A program made the position numbers and the translations under genes. A DNA stretch of 64,000 nt from Acidobacteriota bacterium (GTDB taxonomy: Bacteria > Acidobacteriota > Vicinamibacteria > Vicinamibacterales > JAKQTR01). The stretch covers positions 151,342 to 215,341 of the forward strand of contig JAPKZO010000032.1 of the NCBI GenBank assembly GCA_026393755.1, read 5' to 3'. The notes under the pieces are model-generated. The model was not told the origin of the DNA. It saw only the letters and a list, made by a program, of their open reading frames with translations, and ran no database searches. Below are positions 41,164 to 49,630 of this stretch, piece by piece (the stretch's first letter is position 1; every line of letters begins with the position of its first letter).

Positions 41164-41394
41164 ATGCCCTTGATGCGACAAGTGGGACATCGGTCTCCAA
41201 ACGGAGACGCACTGGCCGACCAGCGAGCGCTCACCAGAACGGCCGCCGTCCTTCGCGCCACCACGGCGCTTGTCCCGCGCGGCGTGTATCGCTTCCGCAA
41301 CTTCGACGAGGCTGATCGGTGGCTGATGGACACGATCCGGCGTACGCACGCGCACCTGAACCCGACGATCTCGTCCGGCTCTGCCGGGCGCTGA
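41164..41394 (+). CDS. small hypothetical protein (76 aa)
   Basis: ATG lies 8 nt after GAGGTG. The C-terminal motif GVYRFRNFDEADRWL looks like a conserved small-protein motif I cannot name. It overlaps the next ORF by 76 nt. Confidence 0.35.
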   Translation: MPLMRQVGHRSPNGDALADQRALTRTAAVLRATTALVPRGVYRFRNFDEADRWLMDTIRRTHAHLNPTISSGSAGR

Positions 41395-41819
41395 ACGACG
41401 CCGGGGCCCGGTACGTACTGATCGGCGGATTCGCCGTGATCGCCCACGGCGCCGCCCGCTTTACCAAAGACATCGATCTCCTGGTCGACGACGCGCCGGA
41501 GAACGTGGCGCGCGTCAAACGGGGGATGGCCATCCTGGCCGACAATGCCGCCGCCGAGGTCGCCGACACTGACCTGCGCGAGTTCGTCGTGGTGCGCGTG
41601 GCCGACGAGTTCCTCGTTGATCTGATGGGCCGTGCCTGCGGCTTGTCTTACGCGGACGTCGTCGCCGACGCGGAGTCGCGCCAACTTGAAGGAGTGTCGG
41701 TTCTGGTCGCGAGCCCGGCCACACTCATCAGAACTAAACAGACCGCCCGCGCACAGGACGCTCTCGACCGGGCTTTTCTTGAAGGGGTGATTCGGGATCG
41801 GGACACGGGCATCGGGTGA
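41319..41819 (+). CDS. small nucleotidyltransferase-fold protein (AbiEii/MNT-like core)
   Basis: ARYVLIGGFAVIAHGAARFTKDIDLLVD resembles the GG..hG..R.T.DiD nucleotidyltransferase motif. GTG start lies 7 nt after GAGG. Confidence 0.6.
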   Translation: MADGHDPAYARAPEPDDLVRLCRALNDAGARYVLIGGFAVIAHGAARFTKDIDLLVDDAPENVARVKRGMAILADNAAAEVADTDLREFVVVRVADEFLVDLMGRACGLSYADVVADAESRQLEGVSVLVASPATLIRTKQTARAQDALDRAFLEGVIRDRDTGIG

Positions 41820-41864: not shown

Positions 41865-44519
41865 CTACTTCGGCGCCGCGTCGGACCTTCCGGTCGCATT
41901 CCCTCCCGGCGTGTGCTCGTCGGCGAGGTCGGCGTGCTCGGGATACAGCTTCCGGATGCAATCGGGGCAGATTCCATGACTGAACGCCGCCTCGGAGTGG
42001 TCCCGCACGTACTGCTCGATCTGATTCCAGTAACCGCCGTCGTCGCGGACCCGTTTGCACGACGCACAGATCGGCAGCAGCCCGCGGAGGGTCTTGATAT
42101 GAGCCACCGCCTCGTCGACCTTGGCCTGCAGGACGCGCTGCCGCTTGCGGAGTTGCCCGGTGCGCAGCCGATAGAGACCGACGCAGGATGCGACCAGCGT
42201 CAGCGCAGCACAGCCGTAGAACAGGAAGGTCTGATAGAAATGCGGCTCGAGCACGAAGTCGAATGACGCCGGGGTCCCGCTCCAGACTCCGTCGTCGTTC
42301 GCCGCCTTCACCAGGAAGCGATGAGAGCCGTACGGGATGCTTGTGTAAGACGCAGAACGCTGCGCGCCCGCGTCGATCCATTTCCGGTCAAAGCCTTCGA
42401 GCCGATAGACGAACCGCATCCGTGCCGGCGCGACGAAACTCAACCCTGTAAAGCGGAACTCAAATCGCTGGCTCCCCGCCTGGATGTGGTCGCCCGGCTC
42501 GATCGGCCGCCCGTCCACAATCACGTCTTCGACGAGAACCGGGGGCGGCTTGGGGTTTCTCCGCAGATTGGCTGGATCAACCGACGCAAGGCCCTTGAGC
42601 GTCGCGAACCAGAGCCGCCCGTCATCGGTCCTCCACCCTCCGGGACTGCCGCCGTTGCATTCGCGGCTCTTCATTCCGTCGGCTTCCGTGTACGTCGTGG
42701 ACGCAATTGATGTGGCCCGGCCGTCCGAAAACGCCTCGAGTGCCTGCTTGCTGACGCGGAAGATCCCGGTATTACAGCTGAGCCACAGGTTCCCCAGCTG
42801 ATCGTCGACGATCTGGAATGACGTGTCGCTGAAGAACCCGTCGCGCGTGCCGTACGCGGTGATGCGCCCGTTCTTGAACCGGTTCAGACCGCCGCCGTAC
42901 GTCGCTATCCAGAGCGTGCCGTCGTCGTCAAAGTGCAGCGACCTGGCAAAGTTGTTCGAGAGTCCTTGCGAGACGGTGTACGTGTGAAAGACGCCGTCCT
43001 TGAAGTGATTCAGTCCGCCGTAGCTGCCAATCCACAACGACCCGTCTTTGTCCTGCACCATGGCCCTCACCCGGTTTTCTGCCAAACCGTCACGGGTGGT
43101 GTAGGTGACGAGACGATCACCGTCGATGTAACTCAGACCGCCCCCGTTGGTTCCGACCCAGATCCGGCCATCTCGATCCTCGAACACGACACGGACGGAG
43201 AAACCGGGAAGGCCTCGTGATTGGTCATAGACCTCAAACACGCCCTGCCTGTACCGGTAGAGCTGTCGTTCCGTGCCAATCCACAGATTTCCCTGCCTGT
43301 CCTCGAGGAGCGCCCGGACGATCGTGCCGGCCAGATGCCCGCGGGTATCCAGAGGCGTGAATCGGCCGTCCTTGAAGTGGTATACGCGGCCGTTGCCGGA
43401 TCCCGCCCAAAGACCGCCGTCCCGGCTTCCCGTGACGGCGTACACGTCATCGGACGGCCCGAGTTGTGGCCCGTACGTTGTGAAGCTCGCATCCCGCCAG
43501 CGGTCGAGGCCGCCGCCGTTGGTGCCTATCCAGTAGCTGCCCTCGCGATCCTGCATGATGGCGGTCACGTCGTCATTGGCCAGGCCGTCGCGCGAGGTGA
43601 GCGTGCTGACGGCACCTTTTTCGAGTCGAGCCAGTCCTCCGCGGGTACCCACCCAGACGACCGCCGCGTCGTCGACATGGAGCGTCCGAACGACATCGTT
43701 GGGCAGCCCCCCGCGCCGAACCGTGTAGGTGGCCGCTTTACCCTCACGCCATCTGGTCAAGCCCTGGGTGGTTCCGATCCAGATATTGCCCTGGCGATCG
43801 CCGGCCAGGGCCGTGACCGAATCGCCGGCCACGCCGTTGCGACTGGTATAGGTCACGAATTTCCCGTTGTCGAACCGGCTGACGCCGACGGCGGTTCCCA
43901 CCCACACGACGCCGCGCACGTCGGCGATGACGGAGGTGGTGGAGCGGCTGCCCAGGCCGTCAGCGGTTGTAAACGTCGTGAAACCACTTTTCGCGGACCA
44001 GCGGCTGACGCCCCCGCCTTCTGTCGCAATCCAGATCGCTCCGTCGAAGTCTTCAGCCAGATCCATCACCGAGTCGCTCGACAAGCCGTCTGTCGTCCTG
44101 AAGAGCCTGAACTGTCCGTCCTTCATGCTGATCAATCCGCCGCCATATGTGCCAAGCCAGAGTGTCCCGTCCCGGGCCTCGAGGAGCGCCTCCACGTGGT
44201 TGCTGCGGAACTGTGGCGTGTTCCGGCTGCCGTACACGGTAAAGCGGACCCCGTCAAAGCGGACGAGGCCTTCCTGGGTCCCGATCCACAGGTAGCCGTC
44301 GCGTGTCTGCACCACGGCCTGGATGGAGTTCTGGGGCAATCCGTCGGCCGCCTGCCAGTTCTCGTGACTGAACTGACTGATCAGATGGGTTGGAGTCTGC
44401 GCGGAAAGATTGGTGACACAGCCCAGCAACAACAATCCAACGCAGCACGACAGGCACAAGCTCCCGACTGCGGCACTGTGGCGTTCGGCACACCTTGCCC
44501 GGCGATTCGTCGATTTCAT
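41865..44519 (-). CDS. periplasmic beta-propeller sensor (two-component regulator propeller repeats + Y_Y_Y-like domain), TM, coiled coil, C-terminal Cys-rich module; no kinase/GGDEF output
   Basis: Repeated DG.LWIGT..GL..F motifs span ~650 aa, followed by the TM FLFYGCAALTLVASCVGLY. The protein ends LPICASCKRVRDDGGYWNQIEQYVRDHSEAAFSHGICPDCIRKLYPE. Confidence 0.85.
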   Translation of the reverse strand: MKSTNRRARCAERHSAAVGSLCLSCCVGLLLLGCVTNLSAQTPTHLISQFSHENWQAADGLPQNSIQAVVQTRDGYLWIGTQEGLVRFDGVRFTVYGSRNTPQFRSNHVEALLEARDGTLWLGTYGGGLISMKDGQFRLFRTTDGLSSDSVMDLAEDFDGAIWIATEGGGVSRWSAKSGFTTFTTADGLGSRSTTSVIADVRGVVWVGTAVGVSRFDNGKFVTYTSRNGVAGDSVTALAGDRQGNIWIGTTQGLTRWREGKAATYTVRRGGLPNDVVRTLHVDDAAVVWVGTRGGLARLEKGAVSTLTSRDGLANDDVTAIMQDREGSYWIGTNGGGLDRWRDASFTTYGPQLGPSDDVYAVTGSRDGGLWAGSGNGRVYHFKDGRFTPLDTRGHLAGTIVRALLEDRQGNLWIGTERQLYRYRQGVFEVYDQSRGLPGFSVRVVFEDRDGRIWVGTNGGGLSYIDGDRLVTYTTRDGLAENRVRAMVQDKDGSLWIGSYGGLNHFKDGVFHTYTVSQGLSNNFARSLHFDDDGTLWIATYGGGLNRFKNGRITAYGTRDGFFSDTSFQIVDDQLGNLWLSCNTGIFRVSKQALEAFSDGRATSIASTTYTEADGMKSRECNGGSPGGWRTDDGRLWFATLKGLASVDPANLRRNPKPPPVLVEDVIVDGRPIEPGDHIQAGSQRFEFRFTGLSFVAPARMRFVYRLEGFDRKWIDAGAQRSASYTSIPYGSHRFLVKAANDDGVWSGTPASFDFVLEPHFYQTFLFYGCAALTLVASCVGLYRLRTGQLRKRQRVLQAKVDEAVAHIKTLRGLLPICASCKRVRDDGGYWNQIEQYVRDHSEAAFSHGICPDCIRKLYPEHADLADEHTPGGNATGRSDAAPK

Positions 44520-44654
44520 CAGCGCCTTTGGAGCATCACCGCGGCAAGCATCAGTCCTCACGCCAATAGAAGAGATTACTCTCCACGAAGGCGGATTGCC
44601 AGATCGATCGAGACATGCCTGTGTGATTCCAGATCGCGGGCGACGCCGGTGTTT

Positions 44655-45983
44655 CTAGTGCCCGCCCGGGATGAAGCGCTCAAACCAGGAGAAGCGCGCA
44701 AGGTCGTTGTAGACCACCGTTACCATCAGCAGCATCAGCGCCACGAAACCGGCCATCATCATCCGTTCTTTGACCTTCAGGCTGAAGTTGCGGCGGGCCA
44801 CCGATTCGATCGCCATGATGAAGATGTGGCCGCCGTCGAGGATCGGAATCGGCAGCAGGTTCAGCAGGCCGAGGTTCAGGCTGAGCGAGGCCATGAACGA
44901 GAAGAGCGCCAGCCAGCCGAGCGCCGCGTAGTCGCCTGACAACTGCGCAATGGCGACGGGCCCCATCAGCTGGGAGGGAGACGTCTCGCGCGTGAACAGG
45001 CCGCCGAGCGTGCGCGCAATCAGGCCGCTGAACTGGATATTGCGATCGATGCTCATCCGGAGCGCGCCGAGGATCCCGGGCTGCACGAGCTTGACCGCGT
45101 CCAGAATGTTGACGCCAATCACGCCAATGGTTCCCTGGCGCCGCGGTGTCACGGTGATGTCGAGCGGGGCACTGGCCCGCATGACGCGAAGCGTCATCGG
45201 CACATCCGGGAACTTGCGAATCGCCGTCGACAACTGGCCCGAAAACACGATCGTCTCGCCGTTGGCGGTCAGGACGATGTCGCCGATCCTGACGCCGGCC
45301 TTTTCTGCCGGCCCGCCGCTCTCGAGAGTCACGATGCTTGGATGGACATCCGGCAACACGCCGATGTCGCCCACCTGCATCCTGGTCTGCCCGACCGGCG
45401 TCACCGTGATGACCGTGTCGCGTCCTTCGCGCAGCAGCGTAATCGGCACCTCGCGATTCGCGCGACCGCCAATCGACAGGTAGAAGTCCTCCCACGTGGC
45501 CACCGGCTGGGTCCCGACCTTGATGATTCGATCGCCCGGTTTGATCCCGCTCTGTTCCGCCGGCGACTTCGGGGTGACAGCGCCGACGACGACCGGCGCG
45601 TCCTGGAACGCGGGCACCTGTGCGCCCTGCGCGTTCACCACCCACATCAACGCCACCGCCAGCACGATGTTCATCAACGGGCCGGCAACCAGAATGCGGA
45701 ACCGGTCCCACCGGCTGCGTCCGAGGAATTCGCCCGGGCCGCCCGAGAGCGGCTCCTCCGGGTTCTCGCCCGCCATCTTGACGTAGCCGCCCAGTGGGAA
45801 GGCGCTGATGCAGTACTCAATGTCGTTGCGCCGGAACTTCAGCAGTTTCGGGCCAAATCCGATCGAGAACGTGATTACCTTGACGCCAAGCCAGCGTGCA
45901 ACCAGGAAGTGTCCAAATTCGTGCACGAATACGAGGACGCCGAGCACAAACACGAAGGCAACAAGCGAGTTCAGTGAATTCAT
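44655..45983 (-). CDS. rseP: RIP metalloprotease RseP (site-2 protease)
   Basis: Contains MNSLNSLVAFVFVLGVLVFVHEFGHFLVAR (HExxH in TM1), PDZ-like middle region and NLLPIPILDGGH. Confidence 0.92.
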   Translation of the reverse strand: MNSLNSLVAFVFVLGVLVFVHEFGHFLVARWLGVKVITFSIGFGPKLLKFRRNDIEYCISAFPLGGYVKMAGENPEEPLSGGPGEFLGRSRWDRFRILVAGPLMNIVLAVALMWVVNAQGAQVPAFQDAPVVVGAVTPKSPAEQSGIKPGDRIIKVGTQPVATWEDFYLSIGGRANREVPITLLREGRDTVITVTPVGQTRMQVGDIGVLPDVHPSIVTLESGGPAEKAGVRIGDIVLTANGETIVFSGQLSTAIRKFPDVPMTLRVMRASAPLDITVTPRRQGTIGVIGVNILDAVKLVQPGILGALRMSIDRNIQFSGLIARTLGGLFTRETSPSQLMGPVAIAQLSGDYAALGWLALFSFMASLSLNLGLLNLLPIPILDGGHIFIMAIESVARRNFSLKVKERMMMAGFVALMLLMVTVVYNDLARFSWFERFIPGGH

Positions 45984-45998
45984 GACCAAGAGGAACCC

Positions 45999-47192
45999 TC
46001 ACCCTTGATTGTAACCCCGGACCAGTTCCTGGGCGAACTCTCGAGCCCAGGTGTCGGCGTCGCGGACTTCGGCGAGGGTGGCGGCGGTCCGACCGGCATG
46101 ATCGTCAATCGCGCGCTCGATCACTTCGGCAATCTCCACAAAACGGAGGCGGCCGGCCAGGAATGCGGCCACGGCCACCTCGTTGGCGGCATTGAGCACA
46201 ACCGGCAGGCTTCCCCCGGCTCGAAGAGCGCGGTAGGCCAGGCCGAGGCACGGAAAGCGCGCGTGATCGGGCGGCAGGAAGTCGAGAGGGCCGCACCTCA
46301 CGAGGTCGAGCGATGGCAGCGGACTGCTCCAGCGCGCCGGATACGAGAACGCATACTGGATCGGCAGGCGCATGTCTGTAACGCCCAGTTGCGCGATGAT
46401 CGAGCCATCGCACAATTCCACCATGGAATGCACGACGGACTGCGGATGCACGAGGACGTCGATCTGGTCGGGGCCCGCCCCGAACAGCCAGTGCGCCTCG
46501 ATCACCTCGAGCCCCTTGTTCATCAGCGTCGCCGAGTCGATCGTGATCTTGCGCCCCATGCGCCAGGTCGGGTGGCGCAGGGCGTCTTCGGGGCCGACCT
46601 TCTTCAGTTCTGCCGCGGAATGCCCGCGGAACGGGCCGCCAGATGCCGTCAGAATCAACCGCCTGATCTCCGCCTGATCGCGACCGTGGAGGCACTGATG
46701 AATGGCGTTGTGCTCGCTGTCGACAGGCAGAATGGCGACGCCGCGGCGCCTGGCCGCCTCGGTGACAATCCCGCCGGCCATCACGAGCACTTCCTTGTTG
46801 GCCAGCGCGATGGTCTTGCCGGCCTCGATCGCCGCGAGTACGGCTTCGAGGGCGGCGGTGCCGGACGAGGCGCACAGCAGCACGTCGACGTCCGGGTGTG
46901 TGGCCACTGCGAGCAGGCCTTCGGCCCCGGCGGCGCAGACGACGGGGCGCAAAGTCCCGAAGCGATGCATGGCCGCCTCGAGCGCGTGGGCGGTGGCCAT
47001 CGCCAGCACGCGCGGTCGGTGATGTTCGACCTGGGCGGCCAGCAGCGTCGAGTTGCTTCCGGCGGCCAGCCCCACAATCTCGAGGCGGTCCGGGTGCGCC
47101 TCGACAACCGATAACGCGCTGCGGCCGATCGATCCGGTCGATCCGAGGATGGCCACGCGGATCTTCGGGGCGTGCGATCGGACGCGGCTCAC
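45999..47192 (-). CDS. dxr: 1-deoxy-D-xylulose-5-phosphate reductoisomerase
   Basis: Contains IRVAILGSTGSIGRSALSVV, NKEVLVMAG, DSEHNAIHQCL and HPQSVVHSMVE. GTG start overlaps the cdsA stop (GTGA). Confidence 0.93.
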   Translation of the reverse strand: MSRVRSHAPKIRVAILGSTGSIGRSALSVVEAHPDRLEIVGLAAGSNSTLLAAQVEHHRPRVLAMATAHALEAAMHRFGTLRPVVCAAGAEGLLAVATHPDVDVLLCASSGTAALEAVLAAIEAGKTIALANKEVLVMAGGIVTEAARRRGVAILPVDSEHNAIHQCLHGRDQAEIRRLILTASGGPFRGHSAAELKKVGPEDALRHPTWRMGRKITIDSATLMNKGLEVIEAHWLFGAGPDQIDVLVHPQSVVHSMVELCDGSIIAQLGVTDMRLPIQYAFSYPARWSSPLPSLDLVRCGPLDFLPPDHARFPCLGLAYRALRAGGSLPVVLNAANEVAVAAFLAGRLRFVEIAEVIERAIDDHAGRTAATLAEVRDADTWAREFAQELVRGYNQG

Positions 47193-47977
47193 GTCAGCAG
47201 CCTCAGAAACAGGTAGAACCCCGGTCCGACGAGCAGCAGCGCGTCGATGCGGTCGAGCACGCCGCCGTGGCCGGGAATCAGTCCGGAACTGTCCTTCACG
47301 TGCGCGCTGCGCTTCAGCAGCGACTCAAACAGATCGCCGGCAAGCCCAAGCGCCACCATGACGGCTCCGGCGCCGGCAAGCCACCAGATCGGGAGCGCAG
47401 GAAGCCAGATTCGGCCAAGGACGATCATGACCGCCACGCCGGCGACAAACCCGCCTGCGGCGCCTTCGATCGTCTTCTTGGGGCTGATCGTCGGGGAGAG
47501 CTTGTGCCTGCCGAACAGCCGCCCGGCGTAGTATTGCGCGCTGTCTGACACCCACACGACGATCAACACGAGCATGAGGGCCTCGCGGCCGAACATGCCG
47601 CGGATAGCCACCAGACAGCCGAGCGGCAGGCCCAGATAGACGACCGAGAACAGCGCCGCCGCGGCCGAGGCCGGCACGTGCGACGCCGGTTGATACGCGC
47701 CGAGCACGGCCGCCGAGATTGCGATCAGGATGGCGACCAGGACGAGATCGGCAGGCGTCGGCCCAGGCCAGGCGAACGCCGCCGCCGTGACCATGGCAGC
47801 GGCGCAGGCCGGGACGCGCGGGATGAGCACGCCCGTCTTCTCGTACAGGTCCGCGTATTCGACAAAGGCGGCCACAAGCACGGCCTCGACGAGCAGCAGG
47901 ACCACCCACTGCGGCGCAAACAGGACGCACGAGACGACAAGGGGGATTAGAACGACGGCGCTGAGGATGCGAGTCAC
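47189..47977 (-). CDS. cdsA: phosphatidate cytidylyltransferase
   Basis: C-terminal signature SDSAQYYAGRLFGRHKL..ISPKKTIEGAAGG...KRSAHVKDSSGLIPGHGGVLDRID. GTG start at 47977 overlaps the uppS stop. Confidence 0.85.
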   Translation of the reverse strand: MTRILSAVVLIPLVVSCVLFAPQWVVLLLVEAVLVAAFVEYADLYEKTGVLIPRVPACAAAMVTAAAFAWPGPTPADLVLVAILIAISAAVLGAYQPASHVPASAAAALFSVVYLGLPLGCLVAIRGMFGREALMLVLIVVWVSDSAQYYAGRLFGRHKLSPTISPKKTIEGAAGGFVAGVAVMIVLGRIWLPALPIWWLAGAGAVMVALGLAGDLFESLLKRSAHVKDSSGLIPGHGGVLDRIDALLLVGPGFYLFLRLLT

Positions 47978-48765
47978 CGGGCCACGCGAGCATGAGCCGG
48001 TGGCGCGATGCCGCCGTAGCGCCGATCGCGTTTCTGGAAGTCGGCGACGGCCTCCAGCAGGTCGCGGCGGCGGAAATCCGGCCACAACACGTCGGTGACG
48101 TAAATCTCCGCGTAGGCAATCTGCCACAAGAGGAAGTTGCTGACACGCATCTCGCCGCTGGTCCGGATCAGCAGATCGGGGTCTGGCTGGCCGGCCGTGT
48201 AGAGAAACTCACCGAAGCGACGCTCGTCGAGGTCCTCGATCCGGACCCCGGTCTCAACGATGCGGCGGGCGGCATCCACGATTTCGGCGCGCCCGCCGTA
48301 GTTCAGGGCGATGTTGAAGAACATCCCGGTTGATGACGCCGTGGAGTCAACCGCCCTGACCAGTTCCTTCTGCACGTCGGAGGGCAGGCCTTCGAACCTG
48401 CCGATCACCCGGAACCGGATGTTGTTGCCGATGAGCGTGTTCAACTCGAGGCGCAGGTAGCGCTTGAGCAACGTCATCAGCGTCTTGACTTCAACTTGAG
48501 GGCGCTTCCAGTTCTCAACCGAAAACGCGTAGAGCGTCAGCACCTGGATCCCGAGCCGCGCGCAGGTTTCGACCGTGTCGCGCACGGCCTCAATGCCGGC
48601 ATGATGGCCCTTGACGCGCGGCAGATGGCGCTGTGCCGCCCACCGGCCATTGCCGTCCATGATGACGGCGATGTGAGCCGGAAGCCGATCAAAGTCGATG
48701 GCCCGCGCCAGCGCCTCGTCAGACGAGCCAGCCTTCACCCAGGCCAGGAGTTCTTCACGCGACAT
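47974..48765 (-). CDS. uppS: isoprenyl transferase (undecaprenyl diphosphate synthase)
   Basis: Contains HIAVIMDGNGRWA, LTLYAFSVENWKRP, RTSGEMRVSNFLLWQIAYAE. Confidence 0.92.
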   Translation of the reverse strand: MSREELLAWVKAGSSDEALARAIDFDRLPAHIAVIMDGNGRWAAQRHLPRVKGHHAGIEAVRDTVETCARLGIQVLTLYAFSVENWKRPQVEVKTLMTLLKRYLRLELNTLIGNNIRFRVIGRFEGLPSDVQKELVRAVDSTASSTGMFFNIALNYGGRAEIVDAARRIVETGVRIEDLDERRFGEFLYTAGQPDPDLLIRTSGEMRVSNFLLWQIAYAEIYVTDVLWPDFRRRDLLEAVADFQKRDRRYGGIAPPAHARVAR

Positions 48766-48796
48766 GCGGATAACCTGATGGACGCAAGCTCTAATC

Positions 48797-49630
48797 TTAC
48801 CGACTTCCTGCACCAGGCGCCACCGCCGGACGGTAATCAACGCGGACGAGCACCAGGCCGCGCGGCGGTGCGGTCGGGCCTGCCTCGCGACGGTCTGGGC
48901 GGCCCAGAAGCGCCGCAATTGAATCGACGGCGCGGCGATGATCCCCGACTTCAACCAGCGTTCCGACAACCGCCCGGACCATGTGGCGGAGAAATCCATC
49001 GGCTTCGATCCGCACGACGACCGGATGGCCCTGGCTGTCGCTGGTGACGGATTCGAATGGTGACGCGACCCCGGCCGATCGCACCGCCCCGACGGCGACC
49101 CTGGCGGACCAGATCGTCCGCACGCTCGTCTTGACATCACTTCCAGCGGATTGGAACGCCGCAAAATCGTGGCGTCCCTCGAGCAGCCGGGCGGCGGCGT
49201 CCATCGCGGCAACATCCAGCACGCGCGGAACATGCCAGCACGACGCCCTGAGCAGCGGTGGCAGCACGTCGCCCTGCCAGATCCAATACTCGTACGTCTT
49301 GCCCGACGCGCTGAACCGGGCATGGAACTGGTCGGCCACGTCCTCGACACTGACGACCCGGACATCAGGAGGGAGAATCGCGTTGAGCGCTCGCTTCAGG
49401 GTTGGCTGATCCAGCGAGGTCGCAACCCGGGCGCTCGCAACCTGGCCCAGGGCATGGACACCGGCATCCGTGCGGCCGGCGCCGGCCACCACGACTGGCG
49501 CCCCATCAATCCGGCTGAGCGCCTCTTCGATCAATCCCTGAATGGACTGGCCGTTGGTCTGCCGTTGCCAACCCGCATAGGCGGAGCCGTCATAGGAGAG
49601 CGTGAGTTTCAGGACACGGGGCATCGACAT
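48797..49630 (-). CDS. truA: tRNA pseudouridine(38-40) synthase
   Basis: Contains LKLTLSYDGSAYAGWQRQ and AGAGRTDAGVHALGQV (catalytic Asp). Confidence 0.9.
   Translation of the reverse strand: MSMPRVLKLTLSYDGSAYAGWQRQTNGQSIQGLIEEALSRIDGAPVVVAGAGRTDAGVHALGQVASARVATSLDQPTLKRALNAILPPDVRVVSVEDVADQFHARFSASGKTYEYWIWQGDVLPPLLRASCWHVPRVLDVAAMDAAARLLEGRHDFAAFQSAGSDVKTSVRTIWSARVAVGAVRSAGVASPFESVTSDSQGHPVVVRIEADGFLRHMVRAVVGTLVEVGDHRRAVDSIAALLGRPDRREAGPTAPPRGLVLVRVDYRPAVAPGAGSR

Follow-up and report, generated by a model that had tools for sequence, protein, structure and literature searches.

A propeller-type transmembrane sensor from an Acidobacteriota bacterium that ends in a previously undescribed Cys4 output-slot module

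The sensor gene and its product

The 64,000-nucleotide stretch of DNA analysed here comes from an Acidobacteriota bacterium (assembly GCA_026393755.1, contig JAPKZO010000032.1, positions 151,342 to 215,341) and is referred to below as the window. On its reverse strand lies a gene for a transmembrane sensor of a known type, in which a periplasmic tandem beta-propeller and a Y_Y_Y domain are joined through a single transmembrane (TM) helix to an output-slot module that has not been described before (Table 1). An earlier note, made from the sequence letters alone, had read the periplasmic part as a propeller/Y_Y_Y sensor, and the Pfam matches bear this out, with the Reg_prop repeats scoring 202 bits against a cut-off of 20.4 and the Y_Y_Y domain 53 bits against a cut-off of 26.6. 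According to a hydropathy scan the whole protein has two hydrophobic segments, the signal segment, which ends in NLSA directly before QT, and the TM helix. After the TM helix come 101 residues, and the tail of the protein, as read from the sequence, is RGLLPICASCKRVRDDGGYWNQIEQYVRDHSEAAFSHGICPDCIRKLYPEH. The anatomy and the quoted letters of the tail agree with the description in the earlier note of a single TM helix and a coiled-coil-like segment of ~30 amino acids (aa), followed by a Cys/His tail with which the protein ends.

In the window protein there is no Pfam match at E<=1 to HisKA (or an equivalent dimerisation and histidine phosphotransfer domain) or to HATPase_c, no Pfam match to GGDEF, and no helix-turn-helix (HTH) family at E<=1 in either the protein or its tail. 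The possibility that a frameshift hides a kinase domain downstream, of which the earlier note had seen no sign, was also considered. All three downstream frames and the overlapping open reading frames (ORFs) hold only an AbiEii-like gene and a winged-helix/FHA gene, and a hidden kinase is also contradicted by the relatives of the protein that are no longer than 910 aa, all 48 of which end in the module and a short tail.

The farthest possible start is a GTG at 44561, which gives a mechanical ORF of 898 aa (41865..44561, reverse strand). The publicly called gene product (P0278) has 854 aa, which would put the start at ~44429 (TTG), a position that would cost the signal peptide most of its hydrophobic stretch. 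We favour the ATG at 44519 over the start at ~44429 because the orthologues are 878-882 aa long (P0280, P0283).

Table 1. Coordinates of the sensor gene, its parts and its neighbours, in window positions
Feature	Positions	Strand	Basis and remarks
Whole gene, propeller TM sensor with C-terminal Cys4 module	41865..44519	-	884 aa from ATG at 44519
Signal peptide or signal anchor	44400..44480	-	HSAAVGSLCLSCCVGLLLLGCVTNLSA then QT, preceded by a basic N-terminus; hydropathy scan, residues 28-54
Periplasmic tandem beta-propeller, Reg_prop repeats	42438..44399	-	Pfam PF07494, 9 stretches, E=2.6e-63
Membrane-proximal Y_Y_Y domain	42252..42437	-	Pfam PF07495, residues 709-770 of the 898-aa ORF, E=2.8e-14
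Single TM helix	42171..42230	-	TFLFYGCAALTLVASCVGLY, then basic cytoplasmic stretch RLRTGQLRKRQR; hydropathy scan, residues 778-797; positive-inside pattern from sequence
Cytoplasmic linker helix	42081..42170	-	30 aa, a/d heptads reaching the first CxxC; occupancy in 244 family members
Cys4 module	41937..42080	-	LLPICASCKRVRDDGGYWNQIEQYVRDHSEAAFSHGICPDCIRKLYPE; 46 aa; CxxC-x29-CxxC core 41958-42068
Putative metal ligands, four Cys	42066-42068, 42057-42059, 41967-41969, 41958-41960	-	
C-terminal tail	41868..41936	-	HADLADEHTPGGNATGRSDAAPK; 23 aa, non-conserved in alignments; stop codon next
Stop codon	41865-41867	-	
AbiEii-like gene	41319-41819	+	166 aa; AbiEii toxin / DUF2204 nucleotidyltransferase families, E ~2e-6, above cut-off
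Winged-helix/FHA gene	40245 to ~41000	-	Trans_reg_C winged helix plus FHA; mechanical ORF continues to 41684
Housekeeping cluster uppS-cdsA-dxr-rseP	44655-49365	-	dxr, cdsA and uppS named by reading translations, rseP by Pfam
ORF of 673 aa	36044-38065	+	no Pfam match at E<=0.01
ORF of 461 aa	38090-39475	-	no Pfam match at E<=0.01
ORF of 157 aa	39648-40121	-	no Pfam match at E<=0.01

The Cys4 module, its carriers and their surroundings

The module belongs to a large and sharply defined family. When the 58-aa tail alone is used as the query, relatives from several phyla are found at E ~1e-26 and ~70% identity. A profile of the module, searched against all 1.84 billion representatives (clusters at 50% identity), matches 24,184 clusters at E<=1e-3, of which 19,879 remain at E<=1e-10 and 4,920 at E<=1e-30, and species-representative genomes hold at least 597 module loci. 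Among the matches listed most are from Thermodesulfobacteriota; also represented there are Nitrospirota, Spirochaetota, Chloroflexota, Acidobacteriota, Gemmatimonadota, Planctomycetota and Verrucomicrobiota, as well as Ignavibacteriae, Calditrichota, Zixibacteria, Marinimicrobia and others.

Conservation was counted in the 182 module copies carried by the 150 best profile matches. The four Cys and one Trp are invariant in all 182 copies and the spacer between the two CxxC pairs is 29 residues in every one of them. Counted from the first Cys, K5, R8, D10, G12 and E18 are present in at least 96% of the copies and D9 and Y20 in ~90%. The earlier note had made Cys and His alike the mark of the module; the four Cys are indeed kept, in all 182 copies and in 48 of 48 short relatives, while the two His, present in 81% and 87% of the copies, are not universal. 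The invariant core is Cys4 together with KxxRDDxGxW, and the His do not form part of it. The family signature can be written G-[LI][LIV]P[IV]C-x2-C-K-x-[IV]-R-D-D-x-G-x-W ... E-x-Y ... C-x2-C, with a heptad helix before it, and the window tail agrees with this signature at every invariant position. The module is 72% identical where the sensor parts of the same proteins are 46% identical, and across phyla it remains ~70% identical.

Several lines of evidence place the module in the position normally taken by an output domain. Its location is almost always extreme C-terminal, with a median of 17 residues between it and the C-terminus in the 150 best matches. In a Pfam census of 127 representative proteins the domains that accompany it are PAS (76), MASE6 (18), REC (11), HAMP (8) and GAF (7), with Cache, CHASE, PocR and Reg_prop/Y_Y_Y as further partners. 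The same holds for an independent census of 72 genes taken from genome loci, which adds 7TM, SBP_bac_3, MASE3 and VUPS. In neither census is a HisKA/HATPase, GGDEF/EAL or HTH domain found beside the module. The profile search and the two censuses thus confirm the suggestion of the earlier note that this tail recurs at the C-terminus of diverse sensors in several phyla.

The closest relatives of the window protein show the same exchange within one sensor family. Among its 120 closest full-length relatives, all 48 that are no longer than 910 aa end in the module, whereas in 71 of the 72 longer ones it is missing and histidine kinase, GGDEF or Ser/Thr kinase domains are present on a homologous propeller sensor. 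The outputs usually fused to such sensors had been named in the earlier note as histidine kinase, GGDEF or LuxR; these relatives carry HisKA/HATPase, GGDEF or Ser/Thr kinase domains, and a GerE/LuxR-type output is found in BguR, a one-component regulator of marine Bacteroidota that spans the membrane and ends in a DNA-binding GerE HTH (bioRxiv 10.64898/2026.01.10.698779).

The module is also found in response regulators of ~215 aa, which consist of a REC domain, a helix and the module, so that the module is the sole domain after REC. Four loci of this type (L016, L017, L076 and L080) come from Anaerolineales, a Deltaproteobacteria metagenome-assembled genome, Dehalococcoidia and Neomarinimicrobiota. 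In three of the four the REC-module gene lies directly behind a histidine kinase gene, and in L076 it is preceded by a kinase gene together with a second receiver gene; the gaps or overlaps at these loci are a few tens of bases at most. In the Neomarinimicrobiota locus (L080, 699-7628) a gene for a hybrid kinase of 1617 aa is followed by the REC-helix-module gene, CheR and CheB, these genes lying 2-5 nt apart or overlapping briefly, and the module regulator there sits inside a methylation-type chemosensory-like operon.

The coupling between sensor and module is of a fixed length. In 107 of 110 cases the distance from the DIT..K motif at the C-terminal end of the PAS domain to the first Cys is exactly 35 residues, or five heptads, and in 244 family members the hydrophobic a/d occupancy is 0.8-1.0 at positions -28, -21, -17, -14, -10, -7 and -3. 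The partner domains, the swap among paralogues, the response regulators and the rigid coupling all agree, and we consider it very probable that the module is an output domain.

The module is a real and previously undescribed domain of the output slot. No Pfam or NCBIfam model matches the tail above its cut-off. In a permissive Pfam scan of 86 diverse modules the sub-threshold matches cover a knuckle only, with DUF3039 in 51 of the 86 (best E=1e-3) and zf-C4pol in 28. Searches of PDB sequences with phmmer and with the profile give no significant match to the module; the non-significant matches of the profile are again to knuckles only, namely those of bL36, the CPxC of glutaredoxin and the C-terminal CxxC of Fur/PerR. 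A Foldseek comparison of two structural models of the module with the PDB returns nothing at E<1. Fragments of the motif are absent from the searchable literature, which misses most subscription journals, and the topical literature on response-regulator outputs, zinc ribbons and MASE6 holds no description of the module. The earlier note knew of no functional characterisation, and we likewise find no family model, solved structure or mention of the motif in searchable papers. At present the carriers are labelled 'PAS domain S-box protein', 'response regulator' or 'ligand-binding sensor domain-containing protein'.

Two other views of the family were considered and set aside. A link with mobile elements or defence is ruled out by the matches in phage and plasmid records, which number 0 in 50,697 and 1 in 72,556 respectively. 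The plasmid match (L086, Dongshaea marina NZ_CP028898.1, 4001-4138) is an unannotated stretch with transposase genes of IS21 and IS91 on either side and a GAF-domain gene upstream of it; this remnant is probably a sensor disrupted by insertion. The proteins of 55-101 aa that appeared in a first search might suggest stand-alone mini-proteins. This was mostly rejected, as many of them begin with the end of a PAS domain, and many of these short proteins are fragments or products of split gene calls. One such protein (P0047, L081 5001-5258) lies 13 nt behind a gene for a 537-aa PAS protein on a 4.6-Mb contig, which indicates a split gene call.

Around the window gene itself the neighbours are of several kinds. 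The AbiEii-like gene converges on the sensor gene and ends 45 nt from the sensor's stop codon. Beyond it lies the winged-helix/FHA gene, the domain logic of which is EmbR-like and the mechanical ORF of which continues antisense to the AbiEii-like gene. At the locus of the sensor orthologue of 78% identity (L084) a winged-helix/FHA gene is also nearby, and there it adjoins a gene for a Ser/Thr kinase with PD40/Tricorn repeats that sits between. Of the orthologue loci compared, at 78%, 61% and 48% identity, no other shares this neighbour, and the presence of the winged-helix/FHA gene near the sensor in both the window and L084 could be a lineage-specific link or inherited synteny. Upstream of the sensor, on the same strand, the housekeeping cluster uppS-cdsA-dxr-rseP ends 135 nt before the sensor ATG. 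Co-transcription of the sensor with this cluster is possible, judging from the sequence, because a simple scan finds no sigma-70-like promoter in the region and no terminator-like signal in the 135-nt gap, the three such matches in the region all lying elsewhere. Of the three ORFs without a Pfam match, that of 673 aa has the sequence appearance of a multi-pass membrane protein.

Elsewhere, a gene for an ATPase with MshEN and T2SSE domains (a type II/IV secretion or pilus ATPase) overlaps the end of the module gene at one locus (L073, 6138-7958), and a second MshEN-T2SSE gene lies 2.5 kb from the module gene at another (L081, 7770-10258). No more than these two cases were found.

Metal site, pairing and a candidate mode of action

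Two AlphaFold2 runs, on 26 and 86 sequences, gave monomeric models of the module without metal, at moderate confidence (pLDDT 71 and 74). In both models the first CxxC lies in a short hairpin, a helix runs from the invariant Trp, and the second CxxC is at the N-terminus of a further helix. This predicted arrangement would be typical of zinc-knuckle or treble-clef-like sites, and a single Zn(Cys)4 is its natural reading. The four Cys probably form a metal site, and we infer that the metal is zinc because of the invariance of the Cys together with the topology of the models. The HNH or His-Me finger nucleases, which the pattern CxxC...H...CxxC might call to mind, were rejected, as the models place a helix at the point where strands are required by the beta-beta-alpha-metal fold, and there is no supporting Pfam or PDB match.

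The possibility that the modules work in pairs is suggested by proteins that carry two of them. About 30 of the top 150 proteins are of this kind (P0121-P0148 and others, and P0124/P0277). In P0124 two complete sensor-module units are fused, such that the first module is followed directly by a signal-anchor-like TM segment, a propeller sensor, a second TM helix and the second module; as predicted from its sequence, this topology would place both modules in the cytoplasm. The His of the FSHG motif is present in 118 of 118 single-copy proteins, yet in two-copy proteins it is missing from 20 of 32 first copies and retained by 27 of 32 second copies. The Cys4/KxxRDDxGxW core is kept in both. As first copies lose the FSHG His while the core persists, we read this as evidence that the modules work in pairs and that the His serves a functional site rather than the fold. 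On balance we lean towards such pairing.

A mode of action can be put forward on this basis. The window protein would be a one-component-style transmembrane receptor, in which the periplasmic propeller and Y_Y_Y domain bind a ligand that is probably a glycan or some other molecule derived from the envelope. The signal would pass through the single TM helix and then through a rigid helix whose length is fixed and which most likely forms a parallel dimeric coiled coil, ending in the module of ~46 aa. Together the two CxxC knuckles most likely make up one structural Zn(Cys)4, and this site would scaffold a small alpha/beta unit with a working face that may consist of the conserved K, R, D, D and E and of the His of the DH and FSHG motifs. 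Two modules would lie next to each other where the dimeric helix ends, and a signal-driven shift in its register or spacing would reshape the surface that they form together and switch the binding of a downstream partner common to many sensors, in the way that many chemoreceptors use CheA/CheW. That this partner is a protein is a tentative suggestion, which we hold at somewhat less than even confidence. The explanation as a whole, a paired zinc module on a dimeric helix with a shared downstream partner, is in our judgement evenly poised between being right and being wrong. The earlier note had called the module a zinc-ribbon-type output or interaction domain, which agrees with the evidence, metal binding and a downstream route being the parts that go beyond direct observation.

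Several points weigh against this explanation. When all ORFs within 6 kb of 80 module loci were clustered, no dedicated partner gene was found and only generic histidine kinase and response regulator genes recur (28 of 80 loci). The genes directly downstream of short module genes vary, including MetOD1, CheR with CheB, an MshEN-T2SSE ATPase, a pyridoxal-phosphate enzyme and a transposase, and the neighbourhood of the window gene is not conserved at its orthologues of 61% and 48% identity. The missing partner among the neighbours agrees with a hub partner encoded elsewhere, and equally with no partner at all. The metal may be iron rather than zinc, or the thiols may be redox-active, and the models are predictions of only moderate confidence, monomeric and free of metal. 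Dimerisation would follow from the heptads and the two-copy proteins, both of which are features of the sequence, and the high conservation could stem in part from the small size of the fold rather than from a partner surface.

One alternative is that the module is a nucleic-acid-binding zinc finger, its carriers being tethered or soluble one-component regulators of transcription (or of RNA) like BguR or ToxR, with a zinc finger where those have an HTH. Most response-regulator outputs bind DNA, and in the module itself a KKxR stretch is conserved and aromatic residues are invariant. In BguR a GerE HTH fills the same slot of an identical architecture, and HalOD2, a different Cys4 output, is predicted to bind DNA or RNA (PMC5847659). 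The mean net charge of the module is -0.6, however, with a range of -5 to +4, which argues against a nucleic-acid finger and is easier to reconcile with a conserved surface, common to many paralogous sensors, for a protein or a ligand. A surface that is near-identical among paralogues and phyla is also ill suited to sensors with separate regulons, and the heterogeneous neighbourhoods show no operator-style tie to adjacent genes. We therefore regard this alternative as unlikely.

A redox or metal sensor, equally improbable in our view, would make the module an extra input or gate rather than the output, built either on an Fe(Cys)4 centre like that of rubredoxin or on a Zn(Cys)4 thiol switch of the kind known from RsrA, Hsp33 and PerR. 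Such a role would suit the four invariant Cys, which include a CPxC knuckle, the weak and non-significant matches to the C-terminal Zn(Cys)4 region of Fur/PerR and to the glutaredoxin active-site motif, and the many carriers that are anaerobes (Thermodesulfobacteriota, Nitrospirota, Anaerolineae). It would nevertheless leave thousands of sensors without an output, among them the REC-only regulators in histidine kinase operons, and the C-terminal module takes the place of the kinase or cyclase domains of its paralogues. The module also occurs in Acidobacteriota and Gemmatimonadota, which are mainly aerobic lineages. A redox gate and an output role are, in any case, mutually compatible.

Fur/PerR also bear on a third alternative, since structural Zn(Cys)4 sites lock their dimerisation domains. 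The module could in the same manner be a zinc-stapled cap that stabilises the dimeric helix and has no target, which would make its carriers accessory or decoy receptors or, in the REC forms, phosphate sinks. This would agree with the lack of a partner gene near module genes. A cap would not need ~10 polar residues that are invariant on its surface (K, R, D, D, E, H), nor a module that is 72% identical on sensors that are 46% identical, and a FSHG His that is dispensable for the fold in first copies yet invariant in single-copy proteins points to a function beyond stability. We consider such a cap quite improbable.

No better placed is the proposal that two paired modules create a small site for ligand binding or catalysis from His/Asp/Glu, perhaps together with a second metal, and that the output is chemical, such as the binding or turnover of a nucleotide messenger, rather than the recruitment of a protein: the conserved DH...E...SH and DD/E do resemble a metal or active site, the loss of His from one copy resembles the degenerate sites of pseudo-dimeric enzymes, and MshEN domains, which bind c-di-GMP, are found in ATPases that adjoin module genes at two loci, but the domain is very small (~46 aa), it has no similarity to a known enzyme or messenger-binding fold, and the two MshEN neighbours are anecdotal.

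Returning to the paired zinc module with a shared partner, it is possible that the helix and Cys4 module are the output of an unrecognised and widespread signalling route, in which diverse sensors converge on one conserved cellular target. We advance this with less than even confidence. Censuses of signal transduction class proteins by their output domain, and carriers of the module have presumably been counted as having none. Some 20,000 or more clusters at 50% identity, in one-component sensors and response regulators, would imply an unrecognised layer of signalling that spans Thermodesulfobacteriota, Nitrospirota, Spirochaetota, Chloroflexota, Acidobacteriota, Planctomycetota and many candidate phyla. 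If the convergence on one target is true, the module would, within its phyla, be a signalling currency of a scope similar to that of GGDEF/c-di-GMP or of the coupling of methyl-accepting chemotaxis proteins to CheA. The module is small, autonomous and sharply defined, which makes it directly testable, and the fixed 35-residue coupling to PAS would suit engineered versions that are switched by light or by a ligand.

Comparison with known systems

Among known Cys-rich domains, the ZAS anti-sigma domain has an HxxxCxxC motif in an N-terminal helical bundle, whereas the module has HxxCxxC, is C-terminal and is alpha/beta in the models; no PDB or Pfam match for the module is to ZAS. In DksA/TraR the interaction with RNA polymerase is supported by a Cys4 zinc site that comes after a coiled coil, and in the module a putative coiled coil likewise precedes the Cys4 site. 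The spacing differs, with CxxC-x17-CxxC in DksA/TraR against x29 in the module, as do the topology and the context, and a search of PDB sequences with the module profile, in a set expected to include DksA structures, gives no DksA/TraR entry at E<=10. The Zn(Cys)4 site of Fur/PerR too has two CxxC ~30-40 residues apart in a small alpha/beta unit tied to dimerisation, and the weak matches fall on the second knuckle. These matches are non-significant (E ~0.6-1.6), however, and the zinc site of Fur/PerR is part of a larger DNA-binding regulator and not a terminal module of a sensor.

HalOD2 is a halobacterial response-regulator output with two CXXC motifs 20-25 residues apart, predicted to form a zinc finger, and with a HalX-like N-terminal part (PMC5847659). 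The module resembles it in being an uncharacterised output of response regulators with two conserved CXXC motifs. Going by the description of HalOD2, it differs in having a fixed spacer of 29 residues and a coiled-coil lead-in, and in its wide bacterial spread as opposed to a few halobacteria.

At the level of the whole protein, the Reg_prop/Y_Y_Y histidine kinases and hybrid two-component systems, for example those of Bacteroides, have a homologous sensor (40-50% identity) and the same TM topology. They carry HisKA and HATPase_c and often REC and HTH domains as well, all of which are absent from the window protein. The system nearest to the window protein in architecture is BguR, which ends in a GerE HTH where the window protein has a non-basic Cys4 module and no HTH. 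The two are otherwise alike in architecture, with a signal peptide, a tandem beta-propeller, a Y_Y_Y domain, a single TM helix, a helical linker and a small C-terminal output, and both are built without phosphorelay domains.

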